The notes below the pieces were generated by a model. That model made no database searches. It saw nothing but the letters and a program-made list of their open reading frames with translations, and was not told the origin of the DNA. Shown here in pieces: positions 5,681 to 46,303 of a DNA stretch of 64,000 bases. Position 1 is the first letter of the stretch. The number at the start of each line of letters is the position of its first letter. Source of the DNA: an uncultured virus (IMG/VR IMGVR_UViG_3300028559_000007) (Duplodnaviria > Heunggongvirae > Uroviricota > Caudoviricetes); the IMG/VR virus record IMGVR_UViG_3300028559_000007. One strand, 5' to 3'. The position numbers and the translations under genes are program-made.

Positions 5681-8600
5681 TTATGATTTTACACCTATTA
5701 GACTTAATGTTACTAATTGTCCTAATTCCGAATAATCAACATTAAATCCTATTAAATCACCAGCAGTTAATCCTATTGTTAATCCAGTTGATGAATTTGA
5801 AGTAGCTAATGATAATGATGGTTTAGTACTCCATATACTTGTTGTTGTAGGAAATGAATTTCCACTATATGTATCTATAATGATAGAAGCTGTTAAAGCT
5901 GTTGTTGTTCCTCTCGTAACAGATAGTAATCTCCAACTATTAATTTGAAAGTTATAAGGTAGTTCATAATAACCACCATATTGTCCCGTTGGTATTACCC
6001 CACCTGACCCATCAAATTGAAAAACTATTGAACCTTTTGATGTACCTGAACCTGTTGGTCCCGAATTATAATAATCACTATATTCAAATCCATTAAATGT
6101 TCTTGGTGAAATAGATGCTGTTGGTGAACTAAATGTATAATTAAATGGTGTATTATCAACAATATAAGGAACATATAATGATGTCCTTCCTCCTGTAGGT
6201 GAAACACCCCCAGCTATAGTACTACCACTTATACCGATTACTAACATAGCTGGTTTACTAATTCTTATTATACCTATCGGAGATTTTGTTGAATAGATAC
6301 TACCTGTTGCGAAAACTGAAATATCTGTCCATGGAACTAATAACTCATATGATGTACTTAATCCGTAATTTGAATAATTAGGAGTTGTTACTATTTCACC
6401 ACTTAAAGCACCACTATTTTCAGATGATGAGTTTGGAACTCCTAACCCAAATGATATCATAGAAGGACCCCCGTCTGTTGTGGTTATATTAGTATGTGAT
6501 ATTATAAATGCTTCACTTGCAAAAATTATAGATCCTGCTGGAAAAACACTAGATCCACCTATTCCAGGTGAATCAATGTTTGATGCGAACCCATTAAATG
6601 ATAATAATCTTTTAGTATTAGTGAAATCATTACTAGCTTCTGATGAGGTAACACTTCCATCATCAGCTATTAAAGTTTCTAATAAAAATTTAATAACAGT
6701 ATATCCATTTCCATTCCAACTGAATTCTAATAAGTGTGGATCCAATCTACCTTCCTCATATTCAACTAAAGTGGTACTTAAATATTTAACTACCCATTTT
6801 GATGTGTTCCAAATCCTTTGGCCAGTAAATACAAATCTAAATCCTCTATTTATACCAGGAACAGATAAATTTGGATCAAGTGTTATTTCAATATCACTTG
6901 TTGAGTCAAATCCACTATTTTGTGTAAAATATATTGTTGAAGATGTCATTCCAGAAACTAATGTATAATTTACAGTCTGATCATCTTTCCAATGTTTTAA
7001 TAAGGCAGAATTATCTAATTGACCAATTGGTCCTTGAGGACCAGTTAGTCCTTGAGGACCAGTTACACCTGTTAATCCTTGAGGACCAGTTATAGAAGGA
7101 CCAATTGAACCTTGTGATCCTGTCAATCCTTGAGTTCCGGTGGGTCCTGTTACTCCTTGAGGACCAGTTATAGATGATCCAGTAATACCTTGGGGACCAC
7201 TTATTCCTTGAAAACCTGTTGGCCCAGTTCTTCCTTGTGGACCAGTTATTCCTTGGGATCCTGTAAACCCCTGAGGACCAGATAACCCTTGAATACCAGT
7301 TGGTCCAGTTATTCCTTGTGGTCCAGTTATAGATGATCCAGTAATACCTTGGGGACCAGTTCTACCTTGTGGACCAGTGAATCCTTGAGGACCAGTTGGT
7401 CCTGTATTCCCTATCCCACCATCATTACCATCAGATCCATTAGCACCCTGTGGACCAGTGAATCCTTGTGATCCAGTTCTACCTTGTGGGCCAGTTGTTC
7501 CAATACCTTGTGGGCCAGTTGGTCCAATACCTTGTGGGCCAGTTAATCCCTGAACACCAGTTGGGCCTGTTAATCCTTGTGGGCCTGTTGTTCCACCACC
7601 AAGTCCTTGAGGACCAGTTAACCCTTGGATACCGGTTGGTCCGGTTACTCCTTGAAGACCAGTTGTTCCCTGTATACCAATAATACCTTGTGGTCCAGTT
7701 GGACCTGTAAAATTATAATTAAATATTACATCACCGGTTGGACCTTGAGGCCCACTTACACCTTGTGCTCCACCAGGATCGCCTTTTGGTCCTGTTATTC
7801 CTTGAGGACCAGTGGATCCTTGAGGACCAGTGGATCCTTGAGGACCAGTAAATCCTTGAGTACCAGTGGGTCCAAATCCTGTATTTCCTTGAGCACCAGT
7901 CGATCCCTTTGGTAATAAAAATGATATACCTATTTGAGATATATCTAAAATATTAGGATCACTTAAATTAGATCCACCGATATAAGTTACATTATTAAAT
8001 CTAAGTCTTGTTGATAATATACTAATATTAGTTGAATTAAATATACAAGAATAAAAATAACTTCTAGAACTTGATTTTAAATCAAATATTTTTATGTTTA
8101 GAGTTTCACCATTTAATAATGATATTATTGTATTAAATATTCCAGATAGATCGTTATTCCATATATCACTAGGATTTAAATAAATTTGATTAACATTACC
8201 AAAAGTTGTAGCAAAACTTGATGAATTTAATAATGATAAGAAACCACTAACTGGTGATATTGATCCATCTACTATATTATATTCTAATGTCCAACCACCA
8301 ACTTGTCCGGTAGCTCCTTGACTACCAGTTGGTCCTGTTCTACCTTGAGGACCAGTTATAGAAGACCCAGTATTTCCCTGAGATCCAGTATTTCCCTGAA
8401 CTCCAATTGGTCCTTGATTACCAGTTGGTCCTGTTCTACCTTGAGGACCAGTTATAGAAGACCCAGTATTTCCCTGAGGGCCAGTAATTCCTATACCAGT
8501 AACACCTTGAGGACCAGTTATAGAAGACCCAGTATTTCCCTGAGATCCAGTATTTCCCTGGCTACCAGTTGAACCAATACCTTGAGGTCCTGTTCTACCT

Positions 8601-9601
8601 TGAGGACCAGTTATAGAAGATCCGGTATTTCCTTGAACTCCGGTATTTCCCTGATTACCAGTCGGGCCCTGACTACCAGTTGGTCCTGTTCTTCCTTGTG
8701 TTCCAGTATTTCCCTGATTACCAGTTGGTCCTTGACTACCAGTTAAACTAATACCTTGTGGTCCTGTTCTTCCTTGTGGTCCAGTTATAGAAGATCCAGT
8801 ATTTCCCTGACTACCAGTTGGTCCTTGACTACCAGTACTTCCTTGACCAGTTGGTCCTGTTCTACCTTGAACTCCGGTACTTCCCTGACTACCAGTCGGT
8901 CCTTGACTACCAGTACTTCCCTGACCAGTTGGGCCTGTTCTACCTTGAACTCCGGTACTTCCTTGATTTCCAGTATTCCCTTGATTTCCAGTTGGTCCTT
9001 GACTACCGGTTGGTCCTGTTCTTCCTTGAGGTCCAGTTATAGAAGACCCAGTTGATCCTTGGGAACCTGTTAATCCTTGAGGACCACTATTTCCTTGGCT
9101 ACCAGTTGTTCCAGTTGGGCCTGTTCTTCCTTGAGGTCCAGTATTTCCTTGTTGACCAGTAGATCCAGTAGCTCCCGTATAATTATATATGTATGTTACA
9201 TCACCAGTTGGTCCTTGAGGACCACTAACTCCCTGAGCACCACCTGGATCACCTTTTGGTCCAGTTAATCCTTGAGGACCAGTAAATCCGATACCTGTTG
9301 GTCCTTGAGGACCAGTTGGTCCTTGAGGACCAGTTGGTCCTGTTGCACCAAATATATCTAACATCATCCAATCAGTAATAACAGAACCTCTTGTTAAATA
9401 ATTAGAAGGAGTGTCAATTAAATAGTAAAATCTTTTTTCAGATCTTACAAATACAATCATATTTCTATAATTATATGATGGTATTAGTGTAGTAAGAGCT
9501 GTTTGACCAAATGATGGACTATCCGGAACATCAACTATCAATCTACCTTCTATTTCAAAGGGAGCCCTAATATCAAAGTTTACATTAAATATACTAGCCA
9601 T
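5681..9601 (-). CDS. Collagen-like triple-helix repeat protein (probable virion fibre)
   Basis: Two long Gly-X-Y tracts (GPT/GPQ/GSQ) separated by a globular domain; TAATATATA at 9608-9616. Confidence 0.9.
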
Positions 9602-9631: not shown

Positions 9632-12600
9632 TTATGAAGGTAATGATGTAATTTGCATAGTCCAAGGTCCTTGTGTTGCAGTTGAATATGTGAAAAAATA
9701 AACACTATAAGTGTGAAATAACCCATTATATGGAACATTACTAACTATAAATGGTGATGCATTGAATAAAGTTCCAGGTATATTTTCTTTATTATTAGTA
9801 TTTACTGTATCTATCCAACTTAGATATGTTGCTGTTGTTTGAGATCCTTGAGATTGTGGAATAGCTAAAAATCCTTTTTCTATTGCTGATGTTTGGAAGT
9901 TTACAACAATATTAGCATTAGATTGAGCTAAAACTTCATTTCCATATGTTATAACATCTGATGATGATATATTTGTAAATGTTTGATTAACTTTTCCAAC
10001 AAAATATGGCCAAATTGTTTGAATTGATACACTTACAGGTGAACTAATCATATTATTAACTGCTCCGACAGAAATTGGTATTGGTGTAGGATTTCCATAA
10101 GTATCATATTTTTGATCACCACTTATATGTGAATTAGTTCCTGTCCAAGTATATGTTATAGGTTGAGTAGTATATAATACTTGAGAAGTAGTAGCTGAAT
10201 TCAGTGTAGATAAAATCGTATATAATGGTGTAATCGCGGGTGATGGTGTTGTTCTATTAAATGTATATCCACTAGCAGTTCCACTATCATTTTTAGTATA
10301 TGTTAATGTTAATACTGGTGTAAATGTTAATCCAACAGCTCTTAGTGACGAATCATTTATAGAGAGTGTTAATATTGGTGGAATATATAATGCTGGAACT
10401 GGTGGAAATAAAATCATATTTAATACTTGAACAATATTTAAATTTTTAAAATAACCAGCTGTTAATCCAACCAACCAAGTTAACGGATTATTAGTTGTTG
10501 TTGAAGATCCGTATGAATCAGGTACTGTAGATGGTACAACCATACTTGATGGTATATAGTCTGAATTCCCATAATAATCTATATGACTTTGTGAAGATGT
10601 ATTTATATTATAAATTGTTCCATAAGTAAACCCAGAATTTGTAAGTCCGGCAAATAGATCAAGAAATATTTCTGTTCCAGATGATCCACTTGGGCCTTGT
10701 GGACCACTTAGACCTTGTGGGCCTGTTAAACCTTGAACACCAGTTGGTCCTGTCCTACCTTGTGGTCCTGTCAATCCTTGTGGTCCTGTTAGTCCTTGTG
10801 ACCCTGTTAGTCCTTGAACACCAGTTGGTCCTGTCAATCCTTGAACACCAGTTGGTCCTGTCCTACCCTGAGGCCCTGTTAATCCTTGAACACCAGTTGG
10901 TCCCGTCAATCCTTGTGGTCCAGTAACTCCTTGTGGTCCCGTCAATCCTTGTGGTCCAGTGCTACCTGTTATTCCTTGTGATCCTGTTGGTCCTTGAATA
11001 CCCGTAGCACTTAGTCCTTGAGGACCAGTAGGTCCAGTTAAACCTTGAAATCCTGTATTTCCTTGATTTCCTATATTTCCCTGAAATCCTTGAAAACCAG
11101 TTGGTCCAATTCCACCATCATTACCATCATTACCATTATTTCCTTGTGATCCAGTTGGACCTTGTGATCCTGTATCTCCTTTTGGACCAGATAATCCTTG
11201 AGAACCTGTTCCGGATGGACCAGTTAATCCTTGAGTGCCAGTATTTCCTTGTGGTCCGATAGAACCTTGAGAACCTGTTCCGGATGGACCAGTTAATCCT
11301 TGAAAACCAGTATTACCTAATGAACCAGTAGGTCCAGGTAATCCTTGAGCACCTGTAATAGAGGATCCAATTAATCCTTGAGGTCCGGTTAACCCTTGTA
11401 CACCAGTTGGTCCAACAATACCTTGTGATCCAGTTTCGCCAGTATTTCCAGCCCTTGATGGCCCTTGATTACCAATAAATCCTTGAGGACCACTAGATCC
11501 CTGAGGACCACTAGATCCTTGAGGACCACTAGATCCTTGAGGACCACTAACACCTTGAGGACCACTAACACCTTGAGATCCGATTGGTCCTGTTAAACCT
11601 TGTGATCCAGTTTCACCATATCCAGTAGGACCTTGTGTTCCAGTAACACCGATTGCACCAGTATTACCAACATATAATACAGGACCTTCTGGTCCTGTTG
11701 GACCTTGATCACCTTTAGGACCACCATAGAAAGTACCACCTTGTGGTCCTATTAATCCTGCTGGGCTAACGTGTGATCCTATTGGAATTCCTGTACCTGG
11801 TGGTACGTTTCCTGGATATCCTAAGTTTGTTAGATTTAACGTAGTTGGACTTGGTACCGAATTCACTAAAAAATATCCTGCATTTTCAACATAAACAATT
11901 TGTCCAACACCTGCCCAGGTGGAATCTTGAACAGCAAAAGAAACAATCGCTGAACCAACTAATGGCATAGCATCAGGTTGTGTTGTATAAGTAAAAGCAT
12001 TAGATCCTGTTAATCCTTGAGGTCCGGTTGGTCCGGTTGGTCCGGTTAGACCTTGAGGTCCAGTTGGACCTGTTATTCCTTGAACACCAGTAGGTCCTGT
12101 TATACCTTGAGGACCAGTTATACCTTGTCTACCTTGTGGTCCGGTTGGTCCTTGAATACCAGTATCTCCTCTACCTTGCCATCCTTGTGTACCTTGCCAT
12201 CCTTGAGGGCCAGTTGGTCCTTCTAAACCAGCGCCGCCTATATCACCTTGAGGTCCTGTAAAACCAATAGGACCAGTATTTCCTTGTTCACCTTCTATAC
12301 CAGTAGGACCAAAATATCCTTGAATACCTTGAGGTCCGGTTAATCCCTGAGGACCAGTTCCTTGTGGTCCAGTATTACCTTGAACACCGGTTGGTCCAGT
12401 AAATCCATTAGGATCTCCTAAATCTCCTTTATCACCTTGTGATCCAGTTATACCTTGATTTCCTTGCCATCCTTGTGGTCCTTCTCGACCTTGAACGCCT
12501 TGTGGTCCAGTTTTACCTTGATTTCCTAAATCTCCTTTAGTTCCTTGTGGACCTTGAACACCTTGAACACCTTGAACACCAGTTGGTCCGGAAGACCCAG

Positions 12601-12832
12601 CATTAGAAAGAGCTAATCCAACTAAATTCCAAAGAGTCCAAAGAGGATCTCTAACATCTTTGGCTAATATAGCATTATCACTATTATCAGGAAGTCTTAA
12701 AACAACATCGGCCCATCCTTTATATACTTGACCATCAACCCATTTGAATTCACTTTCATATATACTACTAGGTTGATATGTTGATAAAAAAGGTCCACCA
12801 GTTGGTAATGACACTGTTCCACTAATTGGCAT
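9632..12832 (-). CDS. Collagen-like triple-helix repeat protein (probable virion fibre)
   Basis: Long GPT/GPQ tracts plus a Thr/Ser-rich C-terminal domain; TAATATATA at 12856-12864. Confidence 0.9.
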
Positions 12833-19622: not shown

Positions 19623-20618
19623 TTAATTATATATTAAGTTATACTTCCACTCTCCAGATTTTGGAGTATTTTTACCATTTAAATAATTACATAAAGTACT
19701 TTTATGTATTTTTGTCTTCTCACTAGCCTCCTTTAATGACTTAAATATTATCATAGTATTATCTAATGTTAATAAAACTTTTTTCGATTTATTCTTTCTT
19801 ATAAAATATTTTTCAAAATTTGAATCATACTCATCTTTATAACACCATGCGAATCCACCACAACTTTTTCTTTTATTATTTAGGCATAACCATATATTTT
19901 TAAAACTAAGATTATTATCATCTGATGCTCTCAATAGATTATCATATTCTTTTATATTTCCAATATTATCAATTCTTAAAAATCTATTTCCGTTTTTTAT
20001 AGTATTTTCTATTCTATATTTTAGTTTATTTTCTATATCAGTATCATCATCAAAAAAGAACGTATATCTATTACCTATAAAATGTGCCGTATTAAGTGCC
20101 GTATCTGATATAGATCTGTAGTCTAAATTAAAAAATTCTCCTGCTCTTCGAGCATTTATAAACTTACCAATAAAATTTCCATCTATATCATAACATACGA
20201 TAGATTTACTATTACTGTTATTATAATTTGATTTACTTATCTTATCTCTTGTTTCTTTTGATGGAATTCTTCCTTTACTTTTCTCTCCTATTTTTCTTCT
20301 AACCTCTGCGGATGGATTTTGTAAACCATCACCACCTTCCGTCATGTTTAAAAGATTAATACCTTTATCTTTAAATAATTTTATAAATAATTTTTCTTTT
20401 TCATTCACATTATCATTCTCATCACAAACAATTAATATCTCCATCTCATCTTTTAATCCAAGATTATGCATTTTTATCTTCCACCTATCTAATCTACACC
20501 TTATTCTTTTTTCAATACGGTGATGATCCTTTAGTCTCTTTTTAAAGTCTTTAGTCTTTCCGATATAAACAACTTCATTTGTTGTTGGATTTTTTAAAGC
20601 ATAAATATAATTCTTCAT
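19623..20618 (-). CDS. GIY-YIG homing endonuclease with NUMOD repeats
   Basis: YIYALKNP..VYIGKT..KRL..H, N...GGDG, NUMOD3/NUMOD1-like repeats. Confidence 0.9.
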   Translation of the reverse strand: MKNYIYALKNPTTNEVVYIGKTKDFKKRLKDHHRIEKRIRCRLDRWKIKMHNLGLKDEMEILIVCDENDNVNEKEKLFIKLFKDKGINLLNMTEGGDGLQNPSAEVRRKIGEKSKGRIPSKETRDKISKSNYNNSNSKSIVCYDIDGNFIGKFINARRAGEFFNLDYRSISDTALNTAHFIGNRYTFFFDDDTDIENKLKYRIENTIKNGNRFLRIDNIGNIKEYDNLLRASDDNNLSFKNIWLCLNNKRKSCGGFAWCYKDEYDSNFEKYFIRKNKSKKVLLTLDNTMIIFKSLKEASEKTKIHKSTLCNYLNGKNTPKSGEWKYNLIYN

Positions 20619-21264: not shown

Positions 21265-21600
21265 GTGGTATTACCTAATTTTAATAAAATGACGTGGTTT
21301 GATGGTTCTTATAATGTTTCAATAAATAATCCACAAAAATATAAAAATGAATTTGAATCTTTTAAGAGAAAACTAGGTAAACATAAATACTGGTTTGAAT
21401 CTCTTGGAATAAAGAAACAATGGGATCTTCTTTTCATTTGGAAAAAAGAAAAATATTTCTATCAAAATACATTACAAACAAAAAACAATCAAGTGTCATT
21501 GAAAAAGTTTTTATATGAAAAAAGAAATTCTAGACAATTTTTTGTTCCTAAAGAAAGACTTAGAGAAAGTGCACTAAATAATCTATTCAATAATATATGA
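21265..21600 (+). CDS. Hypothetical protein with C-terminal tag
   Basis: Ends RESALNNLFNNI; true start may be downstream. Confidence 0.6.
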   Translation: MVLPNFNKMTWFDGSYNVSINNPQKYKNEFESFKRKLGKHKYWFESLGIKKQWDLLFIWKKEKYFYQNTLQTKNNQVSLKKFLYEKRNSRQFFVPKERLRESALNNLFNNI

Positions 21601-22562
21601 AAATATTCTCAGGATTAAATGATGAAAGACTTACAAAAGAAATTTGTAAAGTTTTAACTAAAGAATTAAAAAAATCCTCTTCATTTGGAATAATCGATGA
21701 AGAAATTGTTCCAGGTAAATTACAAGTTGATAAGTTTTCTGATGGGGAAATTTTACCACTTTTTAAAGAATCTGTTCGAGATGAAGATGTATTCTTTGTA
21801 AATACTACAAATTCTTCCGACTCTATTATGGAAACACTTCTTGTTACTGATGCTGCTAAAAGGGCTGGATGTAAGTCATTTACACTTATTGCACCATTTC
21901 AAGGATATTCAAGACAAGATAAAACAGACCATTTAAGATCATCAATTGGTTCTAAAATGTTAGCAGACATTCTTGAAAAAGTAGGTATGTCTAGAATTAT
22001 TACAATTGATTTACATGCTTCTTCAATACAAGGATTTTATAATGTTCCAGTTATACATTTAAATGGTAATAAAGTATTTATTGATTATATAAGATCACTT
22101 GAGTTAGAAAATCTATGTATTGTAGCTCCTGATCAAGGAGCCGTTAAAAGAGCATCAGATTTTTGTAAAGCATTTCCAGAATCATCATTTGCAATGATTA
22201 ATAAAAAACGTATTAAACCAAATGAAATTCACTCAATGGAATTAGTTGGTGATGTTATGGGTAAAAATGTTATAATAGTTGATGATATGGCAGATACGTT
22301 AGGAACAATGAAGAAAGCTGCTGAACTTGTAATGTCAATGGGTGCTAAATCTGTTAGAGCAATAGCTACACATGGTATTCTTAGTGGTAAAGCTTTTGAA
22401 AATCTTGAAACTTCAATGTTTGAAGAATTGATTGTATCTGATTCAATTCCTCAATCCCTACATCCTAAATTAAGAGTTGCATCTTGTGCAAAATTAATAG
22501 GGAAAACAATCTGGGCTATTACACAAAAAATAAGTATTCACGAGTTGAATATCGTTGAATAA
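21597..22562 (+). CDS. prs: Ribose-phosphate pyrophosphokinase
   Basis: FSDGE, YSRQDK, DLHA..IQGF, VAPDQG, IIVDDMADT.GT, THG. Confidence 0.95.
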   Translation: MKIFSGLNDERLTKEICKVLTKELKKSSSFGIIDEEIVPGKLQVDKFSDGEILPLFKESVRDEDVFFVNTTNSSDSIMETLLVTDAAKRAGCKSFTLIAPFQGYSRQDKTDHLRSSIGSKMLADILEKVGMSRIITIDLHASSIQGFYNVPVIHLNGNKVFIDYIRSLELENLCIVAPDQGAVKRASDFCKAFPESSFAMINKKRIKPNEIHSMELVGDVMGKNVIIVDDMADTLGTMKKAAELVMSMGAKSVRAIATHGILSGKAFENLETSMFEELIVSDSIPQSLHPKLRVASCAKLIGKTIWAITQKISIHELNIVE

Positions 22563-25554: not shown

Positions 25555-26154
25555 ATGGAAAAGGTATACAGTATCTACAAAACAACAAATTTAATAAATG
25601 AAACAATTTATATTGGTGTTCATAAAACAAATGATATAAATGATTCATATATTGGATCAGGAAAATTATTAAAAATTGCTATTAAAAAATACGGAAGAGA
25701 TTCTTTCAAAAAAGAAATACTACATATATTTGATAATATGATTGATGCTTATTTAAAGGAAAAAGAAATAGTAAATGATATGTTTATATTAAATGAAAAT
25801 AATTATAATTTAGCAGTCGGTGGCATTTCAACCACTGAATTCTATCCTAATAGAAAATATCTAACTGGAGAGAATCATCCGATGTGGGGTAAAAAACAAT
25901 CAGAGGAATCTAATAAAAAAAGATCAAAAACACAGACTGGTAAAAAAATGACACCTGAGTCCAGCATTAAAAAATCAATTAGTCTAAAGGGTCATAAGTC
26001 GTGGAATAAAGGTAAAAAATTAAGTGATATTGATAAATTAAATAAATCCATTTCAGCTAAAAAATTGGAAAAAATTGAATGCCCACATTGTGGTAAGTTA
26101 AATGACCCAGGTAATAGTAAAAAATCACATTTTGATAATTGTAAAAATAAATGA
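25555..26154 (+). CDS. GIY-YIG (Seg-like) homing endonuclease with NUMOD3
   Basis: IYKTTNLIN..IYIGVH, Y.GSG, YN...GG, HPMWGKK. Confidence 0.9.
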   Translation: MEKVYSIYKTTNLINETIYIGVHKTNDINDSYIGSGKLLKIAIKKYGRDSFKKEILHIFDNMIDAYLKEKEIVNDMFILNENNYNLAVGGISTTEFYPNRKYLTGENHPMWGKKQSEESNKKRSKTQTGKKMTPESSIKKSISLKGHKSWNKGKKLSDIDKLNKSISAKKLEKIECPHCGKLNDPGNSKKSHFDNCKNK

Positions 26155-27344: not shown

Positions 27345-28020
27345 TCATGATATAATCTTTTATGGATTTGATACTATTAAAAAATGGAATATATCAGAAG
27401 ATGTAGTAAATGCTATTAAAAAAATTAAATGGAAATCTGAAGAAGGGTATTATACTAAAATATTAGTATCTACGGAAATTGATAATATTGATATTATTAA
27501 AAATTATTGTGGAGAATTTAATTCATCTGATTTTTATAATAGAGTTTCCATAGGTATACAATTTTTCACAAGACATATTAGATTTCATGATTTAGATGAA
27601 GATTTTATAAAAAACAATAATATAGAACAATATCATATTGATTTAATTAATAGATTATATTTTGATGAGGAATTAGATGAATATGTAATAATATCAACAG
27701 CTGATAAACGGCCTTTTGGCAATTCATCAATTGAATATGATATTTTAGATGTATTATATCCAGGACAAAAAGATTCTGATAAAAGGAGAAAGGAGAAAAT
27801 AGAAAAATGTTGGATTGTATTTGACGAAATATTTAATATTTTAATTAAATTATTTAAAGATTTTCCAATGAAATTTAGAAATTTTGTTTCTTTTAATAAC
27901 GTTGAGTTTGATAAAATATGTTTAGAACAGAAATCATATTATAGTCATGGTTGGGCACCTTGTATTTCAGAGTTTAGAGAAATTAAAATAAATAATATTC
28001 TAAATGAAGTTATTAGATAA
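27331..28020 (+). CDS. Hypothetical protein with C-terminal tag
   Basis: Ends REIKINNILNEVIR. Confidence 0.7.
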   Translation: MARIDHDIIFYGFDTIKKWNISEDVVNAIKKIKWKSEEGYYTKILVSTEIDNIDIIKNYCGEFNSSDFYNRVSIGIQFFTRHIRFHDLDEDFIKNNNIEQYHIDLINRLYFDEELDEYVIISTADKRPFGNSSIEYDILDVLYPGQKDSDKRRKEKIEKCWIVFDEIFNILIKLFKDFPMKFRNFVSFNNVEFDKICLEQKSYYSHGWAPCISEFREIKINNILNEVIR

Positions 28021-28666
28021 ATATAAAGTGGCTATCGGTAAACCAGATTATTACCAAAGTGGTGGATTCAATTGGTTAAATCCATTTATAAAAGGTGTTC
28101 CAATGAAAGATGTTAAACAACTTTCATTTTCATCATTATATCCAAATATAATTTGTGGATTAGTAGAATCTGGATATCATGAAAAGGCAAGTAAAAAGTT
28201 GATATCAGGAATGATTGAGTTTAGTGAAAAATTTGATTATTTCTCTAAAAATAGATTAGTATTAAAGTCTGATGAAAATTTATATAAAGAGTATAAAACT
28301 TATATAAATTCATTTTACGGAACTCTTGGATATATGTCTAAAGTTGAAGGAGAGGTTGACTTTATTACTATGGTTGCTCAGTATTTGAACGCTTATTATA
28401 CTGATCTATTAGAAGAGAATAAATATAGAATTCTATACATAGATACTGATACTATTTTTTATTGTGATGAATTAGATTTATTAGGATTCAATATTAATTA
28501 TGATATTGAGGAAATTCCATATATTTTAATTGAAGAAAAGAAAAGATATATAACTAAAAAAGAAGATTTTAAAGCAAAAGGATATAAAGGAAAGAATATT
28601 CAAACTGCAATTGATTTGCTTAAAACTCTTATACGTGATGATAAAATAGAAAAACTTGGTATATGA
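28004..28666 (+). CDS. Truncated family-B DNA polymerase palm/fingers domain, likely inactive
   Basis: SFSSLYP (motif A Asp replaced by Ser), K...NSFYG, YIDTD, KKRY; only 220 aa; ends RDDKIEKLGI. Confidence 0.8.
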   Translation: MKLLDKYKVAIGKPDYYQSGGFNWLNPFIKGVPMKDVKQLSFSSLYPNIICGLVESGYHEKASKKLISGMIEFSEKFDYFSKNRLVLKSDENLYKEYKTYINSFYGTLGYMSKVEGEVDFITMVAQYLNAYYTDLLEENKYRILYIDTDTIFYCDELDLLGFNINYDIEEIPYILIEEKKRYITKKEDFKAKGYKGKNIQTAIDLLKTLIRDDKIEKLGI

Positions 28667-28854
28667 AAGTGTATGTAATTTTTGATCCCTTATATGACAT
28701 AGTAGTTTGTGTTCATGAAGAACCAAATATGACCTGCGAAAAATGTAAGTACAATGGTATTAATGATGGGTATGGTATTAGTGAAAGTGAATTTGAATTA
28801 ATTAAATCTAAAGCTAACCTAAGAAATGAAAAAATTAATAAATTAGGAATATGA
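28663..28854 (+). CDS. Small protein with C-terminal tag
   Basis: Ends RNEKINKLGI; ATGA coupling. Confidence 0.75.
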   Translation: MKVYVIFDPLYDIVVCVHEEPNMTCEKCKYNGINDGYGISESEFELIKSKANLRNEKINKLGI

Positions 28855-29057
28855 AATTGCCATCAATATTAGATTTAGCAAAAGATGCTCAAAATGATTT
28901 AAAATCAAAAGAAGAACTTTTAAAGGAATTAGAAAAAGACACATTAAATGCTTATATTGTAATTTCTTTGAAAGGAGAAATACATGATCTAAAATTTATT
29001 TTAAGTAAATTTAAAACTGAATTAAGAAACGAAAAATTAAACGATTTAGGGATATGA
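28851..29057 (+). CDS. Small protein with C-terminal tag
   Basis: Ends RNEKLNDLGI; ATGA coupling. Confidence 0.75.
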   Translation: MKLPSILDLAKDAQNDLKSKEELLKELEKDTLNAYIVISLKGEIHDLKFILSKFKTELRNEKLNDLGI

Positions 29058-29314
29058 ATATGTCGATTGAAAATAAATCTTTATATAAAATGAGAGAAAA
29101 GTGGTCTAGACAAAGTTGGTATAGTGAAGATACTTTCAAGTTAAGTGTTATTCACACGGATAGAAATAGTACAAAATTTGGAACACATTGTACTTGGATT
29201 AATCTTAGAACGGAAGAGACTATTAATATTTGGAATACATGTATGGTGAAACTTAATAAAGAAGATTTTATTAGATTAACTAGAGGTCTTAATTTAGAAA
29301 AATTAGGAATATGA
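29054..29314 (+). CDS. Small protein with C-terminal tag
   Basis: Ends RGLNLEKLGI; ATGA coupling. Confidence 0.75.
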   Translation: MNMSIENKSLYKMREKWSRQSWYSEDTFKLSVIHTDRNSTKFGTHCTWINLRTEETINIWNTCMVKLNKEDFIRLTRGLNLEKLGI

Positions 29315-29595
29315 TACCAGAGATAGGAGACAAATTTATTATTGATTGGAAAAGAATTAGTAAAAACCAAAATATAAAAATGTGTTATTTACCAGATTTA
29401 GAATTTACAATAGATAGATTTACCAAATCTAAAATGTCTATTTATTTTTCAGATAATAGAACCAATAAAAAATGCAAGTGTTTAATATGCTCATATAATA
29501 AAACCGAAAAATGTATAGGGTTATACAATATTATTATAACTCAGAAGAAAATATCTATTGATAGAAGTAATAAATTAAAAAGATTAGGAATATGA
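29311..29595 (+). CDS. Small Cys-containing protein with C-terminal tag
   Basis: Ends RSNKLKRLGI; ATGA coupling. Confidence 0.75.
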   Translation: MIPEIGDKFIIDWKRISKNQNIKMCYLPDLEFTIDRFTKSKMSIYFSDNRTNKKCKCLICSYNKTEKCIGLYNIIITQKKISIDRSNKLKRLGI

Positions 29596-30326
29596 AAAAT
29601 TTAGTAAATGTATTTCAAGATACATTAGAGAATAGTAAAAATCTAACAGATTCAACCACATTAAAACATACTTTTAATGAGAGTAATCCACCAAGATTAA
29701 CAATGTTTAAAGATGTAATTAGTGTTATAAATACTGATAGTGTATCTGCGGTTGTTGAATATTCAAAGTATGGTAAAACTGCTGTATTAAATATGGCATC
29801 ATATAAAAGACCAGGTGGTGGTGTTCATAATGGAGCCAGAGCTCAAGAAGAATGTTTATTTAGATGCTCTAATCTTATTCATGTTGTTTCAAAAGACTTT
29901 TATCCATTAGAAGAAAATGAAGCACTCTATACAAATGATGCTATCTTTTTCAAAGATAAGAACTATGAATATATGGTTCCAGTAATTTGTGATGTTATCA
30001 CAATTGCTGCAATCAACTTAAATGAGAATTCAAAATATGATCCTGTTCAAAATGTTACAAACTATCGTAAATTAACAAAAGATAAAATAAGATTGATGGT
30101 TTCACTAGCCTCTCAAAATAAAGTTAAGAATCTAATACTTGGTGCTTGGGGATGTGGAGTTTTTAACAATGATCCTAAAACTATGGCACAATACTTTAAT
30201 GAAATATTAATTGGTGAGGGATATTCTGTTAATTTTGATAATATAGTTTTTGCAATTATAAACGATCATAATTCTGTTGGTAATAATTTCGATATATTTA
30301 ATAATCAATTCAATGGACGATTTTAA
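29592..30326 (+). CDS. Microbial PARG / TIGR02452-family macrodomain ADP-ribose hydrolase
   Basis: LNMAS...PGGG...GARAQEE.L.R.S and LGAWGCGVF.N. Confidence 0.9.
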   Translation: MKNLVNVFQDTLENSKNLTDSTTLKHTFNESNPPRLTMFKDVISVINTDSVSAVVEYSKYGKTAVLNMASYKRPGGGVHNGARAQEECLFRCSNLIHVVSKDFYPLEENEALYTNDAIFFKDKNYEYMVPVICDVITIAAINLNENSKYDPVQNVTNYRKLTKDKIRLMVSLASQNKVKNLILGAWGCGVFNNDPKTMAQYFNEILIGEGYSVNFDNIVFAIINDHNSVGNNFDIFNNQFNGRF

Positions 30327-30337
30327 CGACATAACAA

Positions 30338-30486
30338 ATGAGTGATTATGTAATGAATATAGATTTTGCATCACTTTATCCAAACGTTCAAAAAAGATAT
30401 TCTATTACATCAGATTTGAGAAAAAGATTTTAAAAATTAATAAAATACTAAAAAATATAAATGACGACAAAGGGGTTAATTTTTAA
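30338..30486 (+). pseudogene. Mini-ORF carrying PolB motif A (DFASLYP), frameshifted just before its tag
   Basis: MSDYVMNIDFASLYPNVQKRYSITSDLRKRF* (stop 30431-30433); the -1 frame continues LKINKILK.., restoring RFLKINKIL. Confidence 0.5.
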
Positions 30487-30799
30487 ATGTATAAAAGATA
30501 TTAAAAATATAATAATAGGTCATATCTACCAAACTGAACTAATACTTATTTTAGAAGATATAGAGTTAAAATTGATTAGTGAAGAAAATTTAAATCATAT
30601 TTTGATTAATAAATATTGTGATTTGATTAATATTTTTATTACTCAAATTCCAGTATTTCTTAAATTTGATGATTCTTCACCCGGAATTACAATTGAAGCC
30701 AATGTTATTGATACTAGAAAAAGGAAATCTTTAGATTTACTAGATAATTTAATAAAAGATATCAGAGAAAATAATATAAATAAAATTTTAGAAAAATGA
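30461..30799 (+). CDS. Hypothetical protein with C-terminal tag
   Basis: Ends RENNINKILEK. Confidence 0.7.
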   Translation: MTTKGLIFKCIKDIKNIIIGHIYQTELILILEDIELKLISEENLNHILINKYCDLINIFITQIPVFLKFDDSSPGITIEANVIDTRKRKSLDLLDNLIKDIRENNINKILEK

Positions 30800-31095
30800 C
30801 ACCAAAAGAACATAAAGCATTTCAAATTTGTATTGGAACCATTAAAAATTTAGCTATAGTAAATCAAAGTTATGAATTTGCAGTATTGATTAGGGATATT
30901 CAAAAAGAACTATATATCGGACGACTAGATACAATAGATTGGGTTGTGATCAATTCATTTGATTCACTTAAATATTATGAAAAAGTTAAAAAAATTGTTG
31001 ATAAATATTCAACAGATAAAAATATTGAAGAGGTAAATTCTTCATTAAGAGAATTACTTTCTGTAATAAGACAAGAAATTATATCTAAAATTTAG
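30796..31095 (+). CDS. Hypothetical protein with UvrB/C-like motif and tag variant
   Basis: AIVNQSYEFAVLIRD; ends RQEIISKI. Confidence 0.6.
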   Translation: MTPKEHKAFQICIGTIKNLAIVNQSYEFAVLIRDIQKELYIGRLDTIDWVVINSFDSLKYYEKVKKIVDKYSTDKNIEEVNSSLRELLSVIRQEIISKI

Positions 31096-31110
31096 GTGAA
31101 AATGAATAAT

Positions 31111-31157
31111 AAAAAATCCGATAGAATCCAGTGCGAATGGATTTACTATCGGATTTT
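31111..31157 (-). terminator. Intrinsic terminator (possibly bidirectional)
   Basis: AAAATCCGATAG-AATCCA-GTGCGAA-TGGATT-TA-CTATCGGATTTT, with a U6 tail on the minus strand. Confidence 0.75.
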
Positions 31158-31395
31158 GAGATTAAAAGTATCGCACAAACTTTACCTCTCTATTTGACAT
31201 AATTCTGTTAATTGAATAATTCATAATGCCTGATGAATCATCTCACCTGCGGTGCCACAGGATTTTTTTGGCCCCAACCTTCCCTAAAAAGGATGTTTCA
31301 GTTTATTCTGTTCTGTTAGGGCAGAAAGTTATCTGAAATATTTATAGGTTATGAAGTCATTTGGCTAGTCGGCTTGTAGCAGCTCCCATTTGACT
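31111..31395 (-). ncRNA. Putative structured non-coding RNA, family unassigned
   Basis: GC-elevated intergenic region; TATATTTG promoter (31399-31406, -), several hairpins, complementary loops CCCUAA/UUAGGG, terminator at 31111-31157. Confidence 0.65.
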
Positions 31396-31429
31396 CTACA
31401 AATATACATTAAATTTTAATATATACAAA

Positions 31430-31786
31430 ATGAAAATAAAAAAGTTTAATCAAATTGATGAAATATTTGGGTTTAAAAAGAAAACAGAAATAAAATTAAA
31501 CAAAATAGAATCTTGTGTTGAAAATATTATTAATTTTTTGAAAGATAATAATATTAATAGTTGGACAGATTTTATAAAAAGTGGTAAATTTGATAGATGG
31601 TCTATTGATAAAATAATAGATTCTAGTTGTGATACTAAAGAAGAACTAGATGAAGTTAGATTTAAATTAAAACTAAAGTTAAGTAATCATAATCAATTAA
31701 AGGCAATGCTTAAAGAATATGAAGATATAGAAGAATATATAAAATGTTCTGAAATACAACAAGAAATAGAAAATAAATTTTCATAA
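31430..31786 (+). CDS. Protein with N-terminal MKIKKFNQIDE motif and C-terminal UvrB/C-like helix
   Basis: TAATATATA at 31417-31425; EDIEEYIKCSEIQQEI. Confidence 0.7.
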   Translation: MKIKKFNQIDEIFGFKKKTEIKLNKIESCVENIINFLKDNNINSWTDFIKSGKFDRWSIDKIIDSSCDTKEELDEVRFKLKLKLSNHNQLKAMLKEYEDIEEYIKCSEIQQEIENKFS

Positions 31787-31815
31787 AATTTATTAATATT
31801 GCTTATATTTGCAAT

Positions 31816-32617: not shown

Positions 32618-32647
32618 AAAAGAGAGTCATTTGACTCTCTTTTTTTT
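32616..32647. terminator. Bidirectional intrinsic terminator
   Basis: AAAAAAGAGAGTCA-TT-TGACTCTCTTTTTT between convergent genes. Confidence 0.85.
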
Positions 32648-33671
32648 ATGACTTAATAATATAATTATTATTAATATTATCAAAGATTATAAATTCAAAA
32701 TTTATTCCTCTTTTTAAACACTCCTCCTTTTTAGATATATTTTTAACTATATCTAAATCATATGTAAAGGTACTCTTAACTTCTATTATCTTATTTTCGG
32801 AAATTATGTATAGATCCGGAAAATATCTTGATATCTTATCGATATTTTGGTAAAATATTTTACCAACTTTATTCTCAATTGATTTATTCTTATAAAGTAT
32901 ATCATCTTCATGATAATATTTTAATAAATAATCCATAACTTTAGGCTCATATCCTTGTAATGATATAACTTTACCACTTGGTAGTCTATATGATTTATGA
33001 CTAAATGATTTTTTCAATAATTCCTCTAGAAAGTCAGAATCTTGACTTAAGTGTTCCACACCATATCTTTCTAGTATCGTATTTTTATATCTATCTCTTG
33101 TTAGTTTTTTTTCCTCTTCCGTCTTATTTACTAATTTGAATATTTTCTTTTTCTTAACTTCTTCTATTTTAGAAACATTATTAACTCCATATTTATTTAT
33201 TAAAATTTCTTTAATTTTATTCTTAGAATTTTCTGTTTTTAAATGATAATCAGATCCATATTTTATGTTATTAGTAATCTTTGCCTTCTCTTTAATAGAA
33301 TCTAATTTATTTGGATTATCAACCCCATATTTTTCCATACAGGTCTTTTTTGACTTTATAACTCTTTTCACTTTCTCAATATCAGAAATATTTCCCCAAT
33401 AATCTATTAGTTGACATTTGTTAGAACAGTATTTAACATATCCTCTATTTATATCACAGTATCTAACATTATTTTCACATTTCAAACATTTAACATCATT
33501 ATAAATATTATTTTTTAAATGCCAAACTATTTGAGAAGTACTCTTACCTGTAAAAAATGGATAGAAGTCTATTAATTGATCTAACATTCCATTCTTTTGG
33601 ATCTCACTTCTTATTTTTAATAAGTGACTATTTGATAGGCAATATTCTCTAATCTCATTAATACTAAACAT
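32646..33671 (-). CDS. Putative free-standing endonuclease (KYGV repeats, C-terminal PD-(D/E)XK)
   Basis: C..C, YCS..C, repeated (K/R)YGV.., FPDLYI...IEVKS. Confidence 0.75.
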   Translation of the reverse strand: MFSINEIREYCLSNSHLLKIRSEIQKNGMLDQLIDFYPFFTGKSTSQIVWHLKNNIYNDVKCLKCENNVRYCDINRGYVKYCSNKCQLIDYWGNISDIEKVKRVIKSKKTCMEKYGVDNPNKLDSIKEKAKITNNIKYGSDYHLKTENSKNKIKEILINKYGVNNVSKIEEVKKKKIFKLVNKTEEEKKLTRDRYKNTILERYGVEHLSQDSDFLEELLKKSFSHKSYRLPSGKVISLQGYEPKVMDYLLKYYHEDDILYKNKSIENKVGKIFYQNIDKISRYFPDLYIISENKIIEVKSTFTYDLDIVKNISKKEECLKRGINFEFIIFDNINNNYIIKS

Positions 33672-34630: not shown

Positions 34631-34716
34631 TGCACAAATATATAAAATTATTTTATATATACCGTATGAAGTTTATAAAAGAATTCCATTAATAATTATT
34701 TCTTTATCCATTTTAA

Positions 34717-40115: not shown

Positions 40116-41306
40116 ATGAAATTCTTAAAAAAATTTAATGAAAATAATTTAACAATTTATAATGAAAAAGTAAAAAAAATTTTTCCAAAAGAATTAGAAA
40201 TATACACTTCAGAAGGTAATTATAAACTTACTAAATCGGATATAACATGTGAGAATGATATTATAAGAGCATTCTATTATCAAAATACAGCTATTGATGG
40301 TAATGTAACTAAAGATGGCGAACCAGATAATTTATCACTTGATTTACATTTTGTTAAAAATGAAAATGGATTCAAAACACTTGTTGATATTAGTTACGGT
40401 GATCAAGTAAAGTCAGAGTTTTCTATTGAACAACCAAATAAAATATCTATTATTCATTATAACGGAATTGGATCAGTTGCTGATAAACATTCACAATTTG
40501 GATTTGAAGATAAATCAATAAATGATTTAGTTAATTTTTTTAATAATTTTAATTTTGGTTATAAACTTACTAAAGATGATTTCAAATTTATTGATAAATA
40601 TCCCGATAGTTTTAATTATAAAAATGAATCTATTAAATTAACTCCATTATCTAGTAATAAAAAAATACTAGTAATAAATAATAGTGGTAATAATGATAAT
40701 AGATTCTTAAATAATATTGTAAATTATTTAAGAATGAGGGGAATTGATCATATTATTATATCTGAAATAGATAAAATACCTAATTTTAAAAACATAATAG
40801 GTGCTATATCAACTGGTTCAGATTTTAGATTATCAAAATCTGATAAAGAAGCTAAATTATCATTTGAAATTTATAAAAATTTAAAAGCTCCAATTTTAGG
40901 AATATGTTATGGATTCCAATCTATGGTAAAATTTTATGGTGGAACTTTAAAAGATTCTGGAGACTTTATACATAAACATTTAAAATTAACAAAATATAAT
41001 AAAAAAAATTTTTTATTTAAAGATGTCGATCTAAGTAATACTGAATTTAGTTTTTCATTCCATGATATAATAGATAAAAATCCTAATGGATTTAATAAAA
41101 TTGCAATGTTAGATGATATGGTAGTAGGTATATCTGATGAACAAAGAAAAAGATATGGACTTTTATTTCATCCAGAAGATACTGAAATATCTTATACAGT
41201 TTTAGATAACTTTATTATGGTGTGTACCGGTGGTGTTGATGAACAAGAGAAATTAAAAATAGGTAAATTTGAAAATTTAATTAATTTTAAGAACTTCACT
41301 AATTAA
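40116..41306 (+). CDS. Unknown N-terminal domain fused to a class I glutamine amidotransferase
   Basis: PILGICYGFQ (catalytic Cys) and FHPE; starts MKFLKKFNE. Confidence 0.85.
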   Translation: MKFLKKFNENNLTIYNEKVKKIFPKELEIYTSEGNYKLTKSDITCENDIIRAFYYQNTAIDGNVTKDGEPDNLSLDLHFVKNENGFKTLVDISYGDQVKSEFSIEQPNKISIIHYNGIGSVADKHSQFGFEDKSINDLVNFFNNFNFGYKLTKDDFKFIDKYPDSFNYKNESIKLTPLSSNKKILVINNSGNNDNRFLNNIVNYLRMRGIDHIIISEIDKIPNFKNIIGAISTGSDFRLSKSDKEAKLSFEIYKNLKAPILGICYGFQSMVKFYGGTLKDSGDFIHKHLKLTKYNKKNFLFKDVDLSNTEFSFSFHDIIDKNPNGFNKIAMLDDMVVGISDEQRKRYGLLFHPEDTEISYTVLDNFIMVCTGGVDEQEKLKIGKFENLINFKNFTN

Positions 41307-41616: not shown

Positions 41617-42207
41617 ATGGCAAATAGTGGAATAACACCAAGAGAAAAACAAGCCTGGGAGTTTGCTAAACAAGCTCATAAAGGACAGATAAGAAAATTT
41701 ATAAACAAACCATATTTTGATGCACATGTTCAAAAAGTTAATGGTATTGTTAAACAATACACAAATGATGAAGATCTTCTAATAGCTGCTCTATTACATG
41801 ACGTTATAGAAGATTGTTATGAAGATAAGGATATTGGATATCATGAGATAAAAGATATTTTTGGAGAAAAAGTTGCTAATCTTGTTAAGGAATTAACCTC
41901 ATTAGATGATGAGCTTAATTATGATTATGCTGGTAATAAAACAGACTATCTTATAGATAAGATGTTAAATATGACAGATAATGCACTTATTATTAAATTC
42001 GCTGATAGACTACAGAATATATCTGATGCTTTTACAGCATCAGAGAAATTTAGAGATAAATATTTTATAGAAACTAGTCAAATTATTAATGAACTAGAGA
42101 AAAATAGAAAATTTAATAGAATTCAAAATCTATTGGTAAATGAAATTAAATCTAAATTAGATAATATCAAATCAATTTTTAAATTGAAAAGATTTGATGA
42201 GATTTAA
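41617..42207 (+). CDS. HD-domain (p)ppGpp hydrolase-like protein (Mesh1/SAH)
   Basis: AH.GQ.RK...PY..H, AALLHDVIED, V.ELT, IKFADRLQN. Confidence 0.88.
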   Translation: MANSGITPREKQAWEFAKQAHKGQIRKFINKPYFDAHVQKVNGIVKQYTNDEDLLIAALLHDVIEDCYEDKDIGYHEIKDIFGEKVANLVKELTSLDDELNYDYAGNKTDYLIDKMLNMTDNALIIKFADRLQNISDAFTASEKFRDKYFIETSQIINELEKNRKFNRIQNLLVNEIKSKLDNIKSIFKLKRFDEI

Positions 42208-45520: not shown

Positions 45521-46303
45521 ATGAAAAAAATTTCAGAAAAAATTATAAAATGGCTCAACGATTATGCAATCTCCAATAAACAAAAAGGATTCGTAATTGG
45601 TGTTAGTGGTGGAATAGATTCTGCCGTTGTTTCTACACTCTGTGCAAATACTGGACTTCCAACAATTGTGGTATCTCTACCAATTAAAGAAAAAATAGGA
45701 CACAACCTATCTTTAGAACATATTAAAAATCTTTGTAATAAATTTAGTAATGTTAAATCTGTTGAAATCGATTTAACAAATACTTTTGAATCATTCTATA
45801 ATAGTGTATCACATGATAGTGATGTAGATAATCTATCAATGGCAAATGTTAGAGCAAGACTTAGAATGATTTCACTCTATCATATTGCACAATCTAATGG
45901 AATGTTAGTTGTAGGAACTGGTAATAAAATTGAAGATTTTGGAATTGGGTTCTATACTAAATATGGTGATGGTGGAGTTGATATATCACCAATTGCAGAT
46001 CTTATGAAAAGTGAAGTTTATGAACTTGGAAAATATTTAGGAGTTACTGAAAATATTTTAAAAGCTCGTCCTACTGATGGACTTTGGACCGATGGTCGGA
46101 CTGATGAAGATCAAATTGGAGCAACTTATGATGAACTTGAGTGGGCTATGAAATATCTTGAAACAGGAATTTTGGATTATGCAACTTGCCCAGATATTGA
46201 TAGACAAAGGGAAGTTTTAAGAATTTATACATCACGACATAATGCTAACAAACATAAGATGAATCCAATTCCAGTTTGTAATATTGAAAATGAGAGATTG
46301 TAG
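45521..46303 (+). CDS. nadE: NH3-dependent NAD+ synthetase
   Basis: GVSGGIDS, N.RARLRM, GTGN..E, YTKYGDGG.D..PI.DL.K, PT.GLW...TDE. Confidence 0.95.
   Translation: MKKISEKIIKWLNDYAISNKQKGFVIGVSGGIDSAVVSTLCANTGLPTIVVSLPIKEKIGHNLSLEHIKNLCNKFSNVKSVEIDLTNTFESFYNSVSHDSDVDNLSMANVRARLRMISLYHIAQSNGMLVVGTGNKIEDFGIGFYTKYGDGGVDISPIADLMKSEVYELGKYLGVTENILKARPTDGLWTDGRTDEDQIGATYDELEWAMKYLETGILDYATCPDIDRQREVLRIYTSRHNANKHKMNPIPVCNIENERL

Follow-up and report, generated by a model that had tools for sequence, protein, structure and literature searches.

A candidate stand-alone gene for a structured noncoding RNA in an uncultured, probably Bacteroidota-infecting huge phage

The intergenic island and its putative RNA gene

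The DNA described here is a stretch of 64,000 nucleotides (nt) from an uncultured virus of the Caudoviricetes (IMG/VR record IMGVR_UViG_3300028559_000007), which we call the window. It is AT-rich (26.5% G+C) and its open reading frames (ORFs) are densely packed. Between the plus-strand ORFs 30796-31095 and 31430-31786 lies an ORF-free gap (31096-31429), and the minus strand of this gap, from 31394 down to 31110, is very probably a stand-alone gene for a structured noncoding RNA (ncRNA) of about 285 nt that has its own host-type promoter and intrinsic terminator. G31394 is the predicted start, and the 3' end is predicted to fall in the U-tract. An earlier interpretation made from the letters alone (the sequence-only reading) had proposed a structured minus-strand RNA of this size with its own promoter and terminator, and the proposal is borne out by the conservation of the element in related loci and by a total of 12 base pairs in which both partners have changed in a compensatory way. 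The motifs that it listed are all found on the minus strand where it had put them, among them TATATTTG (31406-31399) and the 5' stem GUCA..UGG/CCA..UGAC (31394-31356).

Composition and coding capacity agree with such a gene. The G+C content of the island is 37-45%, compared with 26.5% for the window, and the gap is the sole intergenic stretch of the window that reaches 40-45% in 100-nt windows. In the six frames of 31096-31429 no ORF exceeds 36 amino acids, the length of the longest one. Both the raised G+C and the lack of a long ORF had been noticed in the sequence-only reading. A second copy of the RNA or internal repeats were not found in the window.

Upstream of the predicted start we see a -7 box, TATATTTG (31399-31406, minus strand), which agrees with the Bacteroidota sigma-A consensus TAnnTTTG and is invariant in all six loci that carry the RNA. 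The -33 element TTG (31426-31428, minus strand) lies 19 nt upstream of this box, with the divergent ORF's start codon 2-3 nt away; it is present in five of the six aligned loci. An excerpt of a published study (PMC9723704) places the flavobacterial sigma-A box TAnnTTTG at -12 to -5, and since the same distance between box and start should hold here, the +1 of the RNA would be G31394. This G is the first invariant base of the alignment, and the base before it (-1) varies among the loci. The spacing gains support from the other occurrences of the box in the window: for 9 of the 26 TATATTTG sites, a same-strand ORF of 90 amino acids or more begins no further than 40 nt downstream, a placement for which 2.6% of positions qualify (about 13-fold enrichment), and in 4 of the 9 cases the ATG begins exactly 5 nt past the box, that is, at the predicted +1. 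This suggests that leaderless mRNAs start at these four sites. Among the five full matches to TTG-N18-20-TAnnTTTG in the window, the promoter of the RNA is the only one on the minus strand.

A further upstream motif, AATATATA, has 35 sites, 15 of which are no more than 40 nt away from an ORF start. It stands in front of the collagen-like genes, the divergent ORF of 118 amino acids (31430-31786) and, in the relatives, a gene for a protein with a signal peptide, while TATATTTG precedes the RNA and other genes, e.g. the UvdE gene. Examples of such upstream motifs are found at 31804-31811 (plus strand), 34635-34642 (minus strand), 31414-31421 (plus strand) and upstream of 9632-12832. The two motifs seem to represent two classes of phage promoter that differ in timing, of which the TATATTTG class is probably read by unmodified host polymerase and would hence be early. 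Since the RNA has TATATTTG and its 118-amino-acid neighbour has AATATATA upstream, the two belong to different classes; they would probably be expressed at different times, and their back-to-back promoters may exclude each other. The RNA had been called early in the sequence-only reading, which is plausible given the host sigma-A-type box on the RNA as opposed to AATATATA on its neighbour; the timing itself is something that we infer.

At the other end of the gene lies a putative intrinsic terminator (31105-31157, minus strand), which consists of a two-tier hairpin (31157-31113) followed by a U-rich tract. The predicted energy of the hairpin is -19.7 kcal/mol in the window (z -6.6) and between -18.4 and -21 kcal/mol in the relatives that were folded (L007, L008 and L012, see below). 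Hairpin and minus-strand U-tract can be aligned in all six loci, and five of the hairpin pairs show double changes. Note that a simple scan for sigma-70 promoters and terminators missed both the promoter and the terminator of the RNA, as neither fits its consensus and hairpin rules. In summary, transcription of the RNA would start from TTG-N19-TATATTTG, a promoter of the host sigma-A type, and stop at an intrinsic terminator.

Conservation and fold of the RNA

Homologous loci were found in two ways. A search of metagenome contigs with the ORF downstream of the island gave four loci (L006-L009; 59-69% amino-acid identity), each of them with the island upstream; over 321/334 aligned nt, the island is 84% identical to the window in L007, 83% in L006, 75% in L008 and 73% in L009. 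Furthermore, the pattern of invariant columns in the 5' module retrieved two IMG/VR contigs of 172 and 137 kb (L012 and L013), which are the same in the RNA region and represent the most divergent homologue (70%). The RNA set therefore consists of the window and five further loci from metagenome and IMG/VR contigs, with four to five sequence types, to which a microvariant (X7) can be added. A covariance model of the 5' half (R1) scores 159 bits on the window and 166-179 bits on the five homologues.

The RNA is 70-84% identical between the window and its relatives, compared with 69-77% nucleotide identity for the adjacent ORF; between any of the loci the values are 70-99% for the RNA and 66-94% for the ORF. 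Across loci, the G+C content is 37-43% in the RNA versus 19-26% in the ORF. For some pairs of loci the two identities are discordant. For example, the RNA of L008 is 86.5% identical to that of L009 but the ORF 71%, whereas between L007 and L009 the identity is 78% for the RNA and 85% for the ORF. This discordance suggests recombination between the RNA gene and the adjacent ORF.

Beyond this set, the RNA family so far appears to be confined to one narrow freshwater clade. With the R1 model we found no match at E <= 1 in LR756502.1, LR745206.1, LR756501.1 and LR756504.1, nor in five IMG/VR records (G001 and G003-G006), while the positive control (G002) scored 172 bits. None of 50,697 deposited phage genomes matched the island in a blastn search, and scans of IMG/VR with the invariant core motif gave nothing beyond L012 and L013. 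Earlier pattern scans that used window-specific, variable bases had returned no match in IMG/VR and none in the metagenomes. Two further pattern matches were rejected as chance: one in a metagenome (L005), which lies inside a peptidase-like coding region, and one in a GTDB genome (L011), which belongs to a GC-rich alphaproteobacterial metagenome-assembled genome.

In one close IMG/VR relative (L001), the poly(ADP-ribose) glycohydrolase (PARG) has 84% amino-acid identity to that of the window. L001 runs collinear with the window over 27990-31092 and diverges exactly at the end of ORF 30796-31095; at this breakpoint (window 31092, L001 3318) the RNA and everything beyond it are replaced by different DNA. 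The island is absent at that site, and blastn over the 165-kb record finds no copy of it. The variant strain X7, on the other hand, has kept the RNA gene, as seen in one contig of 3,117 nt that spans the whole stretch; other contigs in the four runs compared share 31356-31447 only. Within the gene, X7 differs from the window by nine substitutions and two single-base insertions (about 3%, like the flanking ORFs). Five of the substitutions are in linkers or loops, one is at a G/A position that also toggles among the homologues, one turns a G-U pair of helix P6 into A-U and two break terminal pairs (of P3 and P5); none is in a helix interior.

We built the model of the fold in two parts. The 5' half (alignment A5) comprises the helices P1 to P5 and a loop-loop helix, and the 3' half (alignment A2) comprises the outer helix of P6, P7 and the terminator. 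Of the cells (that is, pairs in single sequences), 98.6% of 218 in the 5' half and 99.4% of 161 in the 3' half are paired, and the pairs that have changed on both sides number 6 of 37 and 6 of 27, respectively. In neither half did any of 500 column shuffles reach six double changes, and the slid controls gave 0-1 and 0-2, respectively. With six related sequences the shuffle statistics overstate independence, but the pattern is coherent helix by helix; by this pattern, P2, P3, P5, P7, the terminator helices and the loop-loop pairing are supported. From 5' to 3', the RNA would thus be arranged as P1, the P2/P3 arm with its loop CCCUAA pairing with UUAGGG of the next element, P5, P6, P7 and the terminator.

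P1 (31356-31394, minus strand) is a 5' hairpin module made of GUCA/UGAC, UGG/CCA and an inner stem GAGCU/AGCC. As many as 36 of its 39 positions are invariant; all of its pairs are kept and none of them varies informatively. The 5' stem of the sequence-only reading was longer: its GUCA/UGAC and UGG/CCA parts are kept, but the second position of the outer G-A-G/C-U-U extension is paired in the window only, and these outer bases probably lie upstream of the start site. A 10-codon ATG-TGA frame is found in this hairpin (31389-31357, minus strand), 5 nt past the predicted start, and is kept in all six loci. We considered that it might encode a micro-peptide and rejected this, with one synonymous and two non-synonymous variable sites; the frame looks like a by-product of RNA conservation.

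Helix P2 (UUUCAG/CUGAAA, 31338-31333 with 31301-31296, minus strand) encloses P3. All of its 36 cells are paired, and two of its six pairs have double changes (U-A to C-G and U-A to A-U). The hairpin P3, UUCUG-CCCUAA-CAGAA (31326-31311, minus strand), is likewise paired in 100% of cells, with double changes in two of its five pairs (U-A to A-U and C-G to U-A), and the CCUAA of its loop is invariant. P4, CCUU-UUUAGGG-AAGG (31278-31292, minus strand), has a loop that is complementary to the P3 loop (31321-31316), which would allow a kissing loop or pseudoknot. Of the six pairs of this loop-loop helix (CCCUAA/UUAGGG), 94.4% of cells are paired, and one C-G has become U-A by a double change in L008. 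The kissing loop that the sequence-only reading predicted is thus conserved in its complementarity, including this one compensatory swap, but a local hairpin fits too, as described below.

P5 is the hairpin CCUGUG-GCAC-CGCAGG (31246-31261, minus strand), which is invariant in five of the six loci; in L012 its closing pair has changed from C-G to U-A. P6 (31196-31242, minus strand) is a variable domain in which an outer helix, GAUG/UGUC in the window and GACA(C)/(G)UGUC in the relatives, encloses a hairpin. The outer helix is paired in 95.8% of cells with one-sided changes only, and the alignment of L012 is unreliable in this domain. In L008, L009 and L012 the inner hairpin is replaced by one of other sequence and length, which is the pattern of a tolerated expansion domain. 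P7 (31158-31190, minus strand) has the form GAGA-GGU-AAAG...CUUU-UAA-UCUC, with an invariant internal loop; its pair 227-253 is A-U in three sequences and U-A in three, and all cells are paired. Two other proposed pairings did not hold up. The long-range helix UUCAUAA/UUAUGAA of the sequence-only reading is fully paired (7/7) in the window only and reaches 2-4 of 7 pairs in the other loci. A pairing of the 5' GUC with GAC suggested by RNAalifold (alignment columns 169-172) was rejected, since 2/6 and 1/6 cells are broken at two of its four pairs.

The pairs also carry information about the strand. There are 12 G-U cells in 7 pairs, all of them valid on the minus strand only, as the sequence-only reading had asserted for its own pairs, and the invariant U-G pair of P5 likewise fits the minus strand only. 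Pairing is 98.9% on the minus strand versus 95.8% on the plus strand, and none of the four mismatches is rescued on the plus strand. If the element were instead a plus-strand transcript, that is, a long structured 5' untranslated region of ORF 31430-31786, this would suit the orientation of the flanking window genes, which are all on the plus strand, and the folding, in which the plus strand does no worse than the minus strand. It would, however, turn the 12 G-U cells into A-C mismatches, the promoter box and the U-tract point the other way, and a AATATATA motif belonging to the ORF itself stands 4 nt ahead of the ATG. We find this explanation hardly credible.

Another possibility is that what is conserved is a DNA element, a divergent promoter or operator together with a terminator for the upstream plus-strand operon, and that the RNA has no function. 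The 5' module does overlap the place where the promoter of the divergent ORF must lie, and the hairpin, which in the window comes after the stop codon of ORF 30796-31095, could serve as a terminator for that ORF. However, compensatory changes are seen in helices at a distance of 100-250 nt from either promoter, G-U pairing has no meaning in double-stranded DNA, and the plus-strand side of the hairpin has just two U residues in the relatives. A purely DNA-level role therefore seems very unlikely to us.

Several points weigh against a structured minus-strand RNA, or against parts of the fold. The existence of the transcript, its start and its end are all deduced from sequence. The alignment holds only six sequences from one narrow clade, and their shared ancestry inflates the shuffle statistics. 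The -33 TTG is absent in L012, and the window has no excess of the full promoter consensus (5 matches, against a shuffle mean of 5.5). The fold energy is only modestly beyond that of shuffles and does not favour the minus strand (z -3.05 on the minus strand, -3.62 on the plus strand). P1, P4 and most of P5 are invariant across the six loci and so uninformative on pairing. A long-range alternative, CUARCC (31368-31363) with GGUUGG (31279-31274), fits as well as P1b together with P4, and its variable R always faces a U; furthermore, a local hairpin YCCU/AGGR (95.8% paired) competes with the loop-loop pairing. With these points taken into account, we still consider it highly probable that this is a real, stand-alone gene for a structured RNA, and this claim at the level of the gene is well supported.

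Neighbouring genes and possible roles of the RNA

The divergent ORF of 118 amino acids (31430-31786, plus strand) stands back to back with the RNA in all six RNA-bearing loci, where it encodes 117-118 amino acids with 52-68% identity. It belongs to a family of 33 clusters at 90% identity. The protein has no Pfam or PHROG match. It is acidic (isoelectric point 4.7-5.9) and predicted to be all-helical with a confidence (pLDDT, the predicted local distance difference test) of 72. A Foldseek search of this predicted fold against the PDB gave a best E of 2.3; the best VIA-align hit (Z 6.6 over 48 residues) is a generic three-helix unit, below the meaningful level for helical proteins, and in the ESM Atlas only unnamed viral clusters were found.

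Distant homologues of this ORF (48-49% identity) occur in a 98%-complete IMG/VR genome of 483 kb and in LR756502.1 and LR745206.1. In these records a different gene adjoins the ORF, and the covariance model detects no RNA there or elsewhere in them. These homologues without the RNA, and the acidity of the linked protein, do not point to it as the binding partner, which is a further point against the role that we favour below. In LR756502.1 (locus L028) and LR745206.1 (locus L029), phages of 634-642 kb, a large gene is the back-to-back neighbour of the ORF homologue, with AATATATA-type motifs in the spacer and the RNA missing from it. In L028, a list of ATG-to-stop frames of at least 45 amino acids gave two ORFs in the 2.7-kb locus, and the divergent gene was not among them; an alternative genetic code might be the reason.

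On the terminator side, five of the six loci (L006-L009 and L012) have a gene for a signal-peptide protein of 125-157 amino acids, about 78 nt past the terminator and on the same strand, with a conserved spacer. The protein has a Tyr/Phe-rich C-terminus and no Pfam match (L007 1726-2118, minus strand; L012 3371-3844, plus strand). Next to it in these five loci is a convergent gene for a 2OG-Fe(II) oxygenase. Both genes are absent from the window (for the signal-peptide gene by tblastn), where a convergent ORF follows the terminator instead.

This arrangement could mean that the RNA is a cis-acting leader, similar to a riboswitch or an attenuator, which controls read-through into the signal-peptide gene, and the constant position of the gene behind a conserved spacer is an argument for a leader and against a trans-acting RNA. 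Yet the window and X7 keep the RNA, its promoter and its terminator intact, the window without having that gene at all. The terminator is strong (-18 to -21 kcal/mol), the downstream gene has its own AATATATA-like motif just before its ATG, and none of the riboswitch families of Rfam 15 matches. We saw no anti-terminator pairing by eye, with no systematic search made. A leader function is therefore quite improbable in our view.

The RNA could also be a base-pairing small RNA (sRNA), with the P3 loop CCCUAAC, the junction GGUUGGG or the 5' module as its seed and host or phage mRNAs as its targets. Its own promoter and terminator are those of classical sRNAs, and short invariant unpaired stretches exist in it. 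On the other hand, its length of about 285 nt, its seven or more helices and its replaceable domain make it much more complex than the usual seed-type sRNA, and its best-conserved loop is already engaged in internal or loop-loop pairing. A crude duplex search of the RNA against the mRNA of the 118-amino-acid ORF gave energies within the range of shuffles, i.e. no better than chance for the one mRNA next door. We regard an sRNA of this type as unlikely, though worth keeping in mind.

We favour, as a tentative reading to which we give somewhat less than an even chance, a trans-acting folded RNA that works through its shape and would bind or sequester a host or phage protein, and not by long antisense pairing. 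It is suggested by four observations: the invariant positions are concentrated in loops, bulges and junctions of a multi-helix fold, P6 tolerates wholesale replacement, there is no special complementarity to the neighbouring mRNA, and the RNA persists in the window without the downstream signal-peptide gene.

What else the window encodes gives some indication of the phage and its host. Its products include giants with collagen repeats, homing endonucleases of the GIY-YIG and DUF7487 types, a phosphoribosyl pyrophosphate (PRPP)-synthetase-like protein, an RNA ligase, PARG, UvdE, an NAD synthase, an M42 peptidase and a protein with a type-9-secretion sorting domain, and few of the window proteins have PHROG matches. 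Among deposited genomes the closest are 'uncultured phage' records of 634-735 kb, with Cellulophaga phages and Prevotella Lak phages being more distant, and a contig of 633,653 bp encodes a 97%-identical copy of the 118-amino-acid ORF that neighbours the RNA gene. DNA of the window is present in lake-water metagenome runs (13 listed, 5 of them with at least half of the sampled words and 2 that may be the source itself). The window is probably part of a huge phage that infects Bacteroidota; we infer this host from the sorting domain, from missing Shine-Dalgarno sequences (judged by eye) and from the type of promoter. The sorting domain (Por_Secre_tail, E 4e-9) is C-terminal in a protein of 429 amino acids (60759-62048, minus strand).

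Several other features of the window deserve mention. Two adjoining genes (5681-9601 and 9632-12832, minus strand) encode giant proteins of 1306 and 1066 amino acids with collagen triple-helix repeats (Pfam E 5e-61 and 8e-69), and these are the source of most coding G+C peaks in the window. Genes at 21597-22562, 29592-30326, 40116-41306, 41617-42207 and 45521-46303 form a nucleotide/NAD cluster, with a PRPP-synthetase-like protein, a microbial PARG, a glutamine amidotransferase, an HD_4 (RelA/SpoT-type hydrolase) domain and an NAD synthase; in view of the NAD-reconstitution pathways, this could be a counter-defence set. Three homing-endonuclease-like genes (19623-20618, minus strand; 25555-26154, plus strand; 32646-33671, minus strand), of the GIY-YIG/NUMOD type or with DUF7487 and a PHROG match to 'homing endonuclease', are found within 14 kb, which is consistent with a mosaic gene order around the RNA.

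Comparison with known RNA families

We compared the window with the 4227 models of Rfam 15, which include tmRNA, RNase P, 6S, SRP, riboswitches, GOLLD, ROOL and HEARO. There was no match at the gathering score over the whole 64 kb; within 30900-31600 the best E values were 3.6-9.5, with scores far below the thresholds of the families, and the RNA of L007, L008, L009 and L012 gave nothing at E <= 1. ARAGORN found no tRNA or tmRNA in the window and none in four homologous loci. The sequence-only reading had seen no resemblance to tmRNA or RNase P and had named an Rfam match as the finding that would remove the novelty; the judgement stands, and no such match was found. In the literature on structured RNAs of huge phages and on phage-encoded noncoding RNAs we found no description of this RNA, in a word-based search that cannot prove it unpublished.

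One suggestion of that reading, a 6S-like mimic, did not survive the comparison. 6S RNA is a closed rod in which the 5' and 3' ends pair, with a central bubble that resembles an open promoter, whereas here we see a local 39-nt hairpin at the 5' end and a terminator at the 3' end; the alignments contain no conserved helix that joins the two ends and no central bubble, and the Rfam 6S models do not match. RNAs of the CsrB type carry repeated GGA hairpins, while this RNA has two isolated GGA motifs only. The two other roles named in the sequence-only reading, a sponge and a decoy, are still guesses.

The back-to-back arrangement of an RNA gene and a small protein gene, conserved as a pair, recalls the type I antitoxin sRNAs of the istR/tisB kind, which are encoded divergently from a small hydrophobic toxin. 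The partner here is different, being 118 amino acids long, acidic and helical, and complementarity between RNA and mRNA is within the range of shuffles. The hallmark of type III antitoxins, tandem repeats, is not found in the RNA. An RNA anti-CRISPR is a solitary mimic of a repeat unit, with the sequence and structure of a CRISPR repeat from the host or from a phage array; the pattern of the 38-nt 5' module occurs in IMG/VR at the two RNA loci only and never as an array.

The packaging RNA (pRNA) of phi29 is an RNA of 120-174 nt with paired 5' and 3' ends, found in small phi29-like podoviruses, where loop pairs between molecules build a ring. The likeness to our RNA is that both are phage-encoded and made, in our case presumably, by host polymerase, with mutually complementary loops that are kept by compensatory change. 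The differences are that the ends are unpaired here, that the RNA is larger and that the genome is that of a huge phage (relatives of 634-735 kb). Note that pairing of the loops within one molecule and pairing between molecules look the same in sequence.

GOLLD and ROOL, too, are structured RNAs of phages and lake metagenomes. They are two to three times longer and have their own Rfam families, neither of which matches here. An excerpt of a 2024 preprint (10.1101/2024.12.08.627333) reports that GOLLD and ROOL form RNA-only multimeric complexes. By analogy with these and with phi29 pRNA, one may speculate that the present RNA belongs to a new class of phage ribonucleoprotein or RNA-only assemblies, in which CCCUAA and UUAGGG would pair between molecules and build oligomers while the 5' module and P5 would capture a host factor early in infection; we consider this a long shot.

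Huge phages have hundreds of genes without a known role, and few of their ncRNAs have been described. In this setting the RNA is a compact and testable object, with a host-type promoter, a strong terminator and a multi-helix fold with compensatory changes that is unlike the catalogued families. If either protein binding or self-assembly were true, this would be a new way for very large Bacteroidota phages to manage their hosts, and RNA structural biology would gain a new 285-nt fold with a probable pseudoknot.

Taken together, by its sequence and predicted fold the RNA corresponds to no named family and is best described as a new family within the known class of stand-alone ncRNA genes. With the generic members of this class (6S, decoys of the CsrB type, phage sRNAs) it shares its own promoter, a Rho-independent terminator and the lack of coding capacity, as well as a G+C content above that of its AT-rich surroundings and a structure conserved by compensatory changes.

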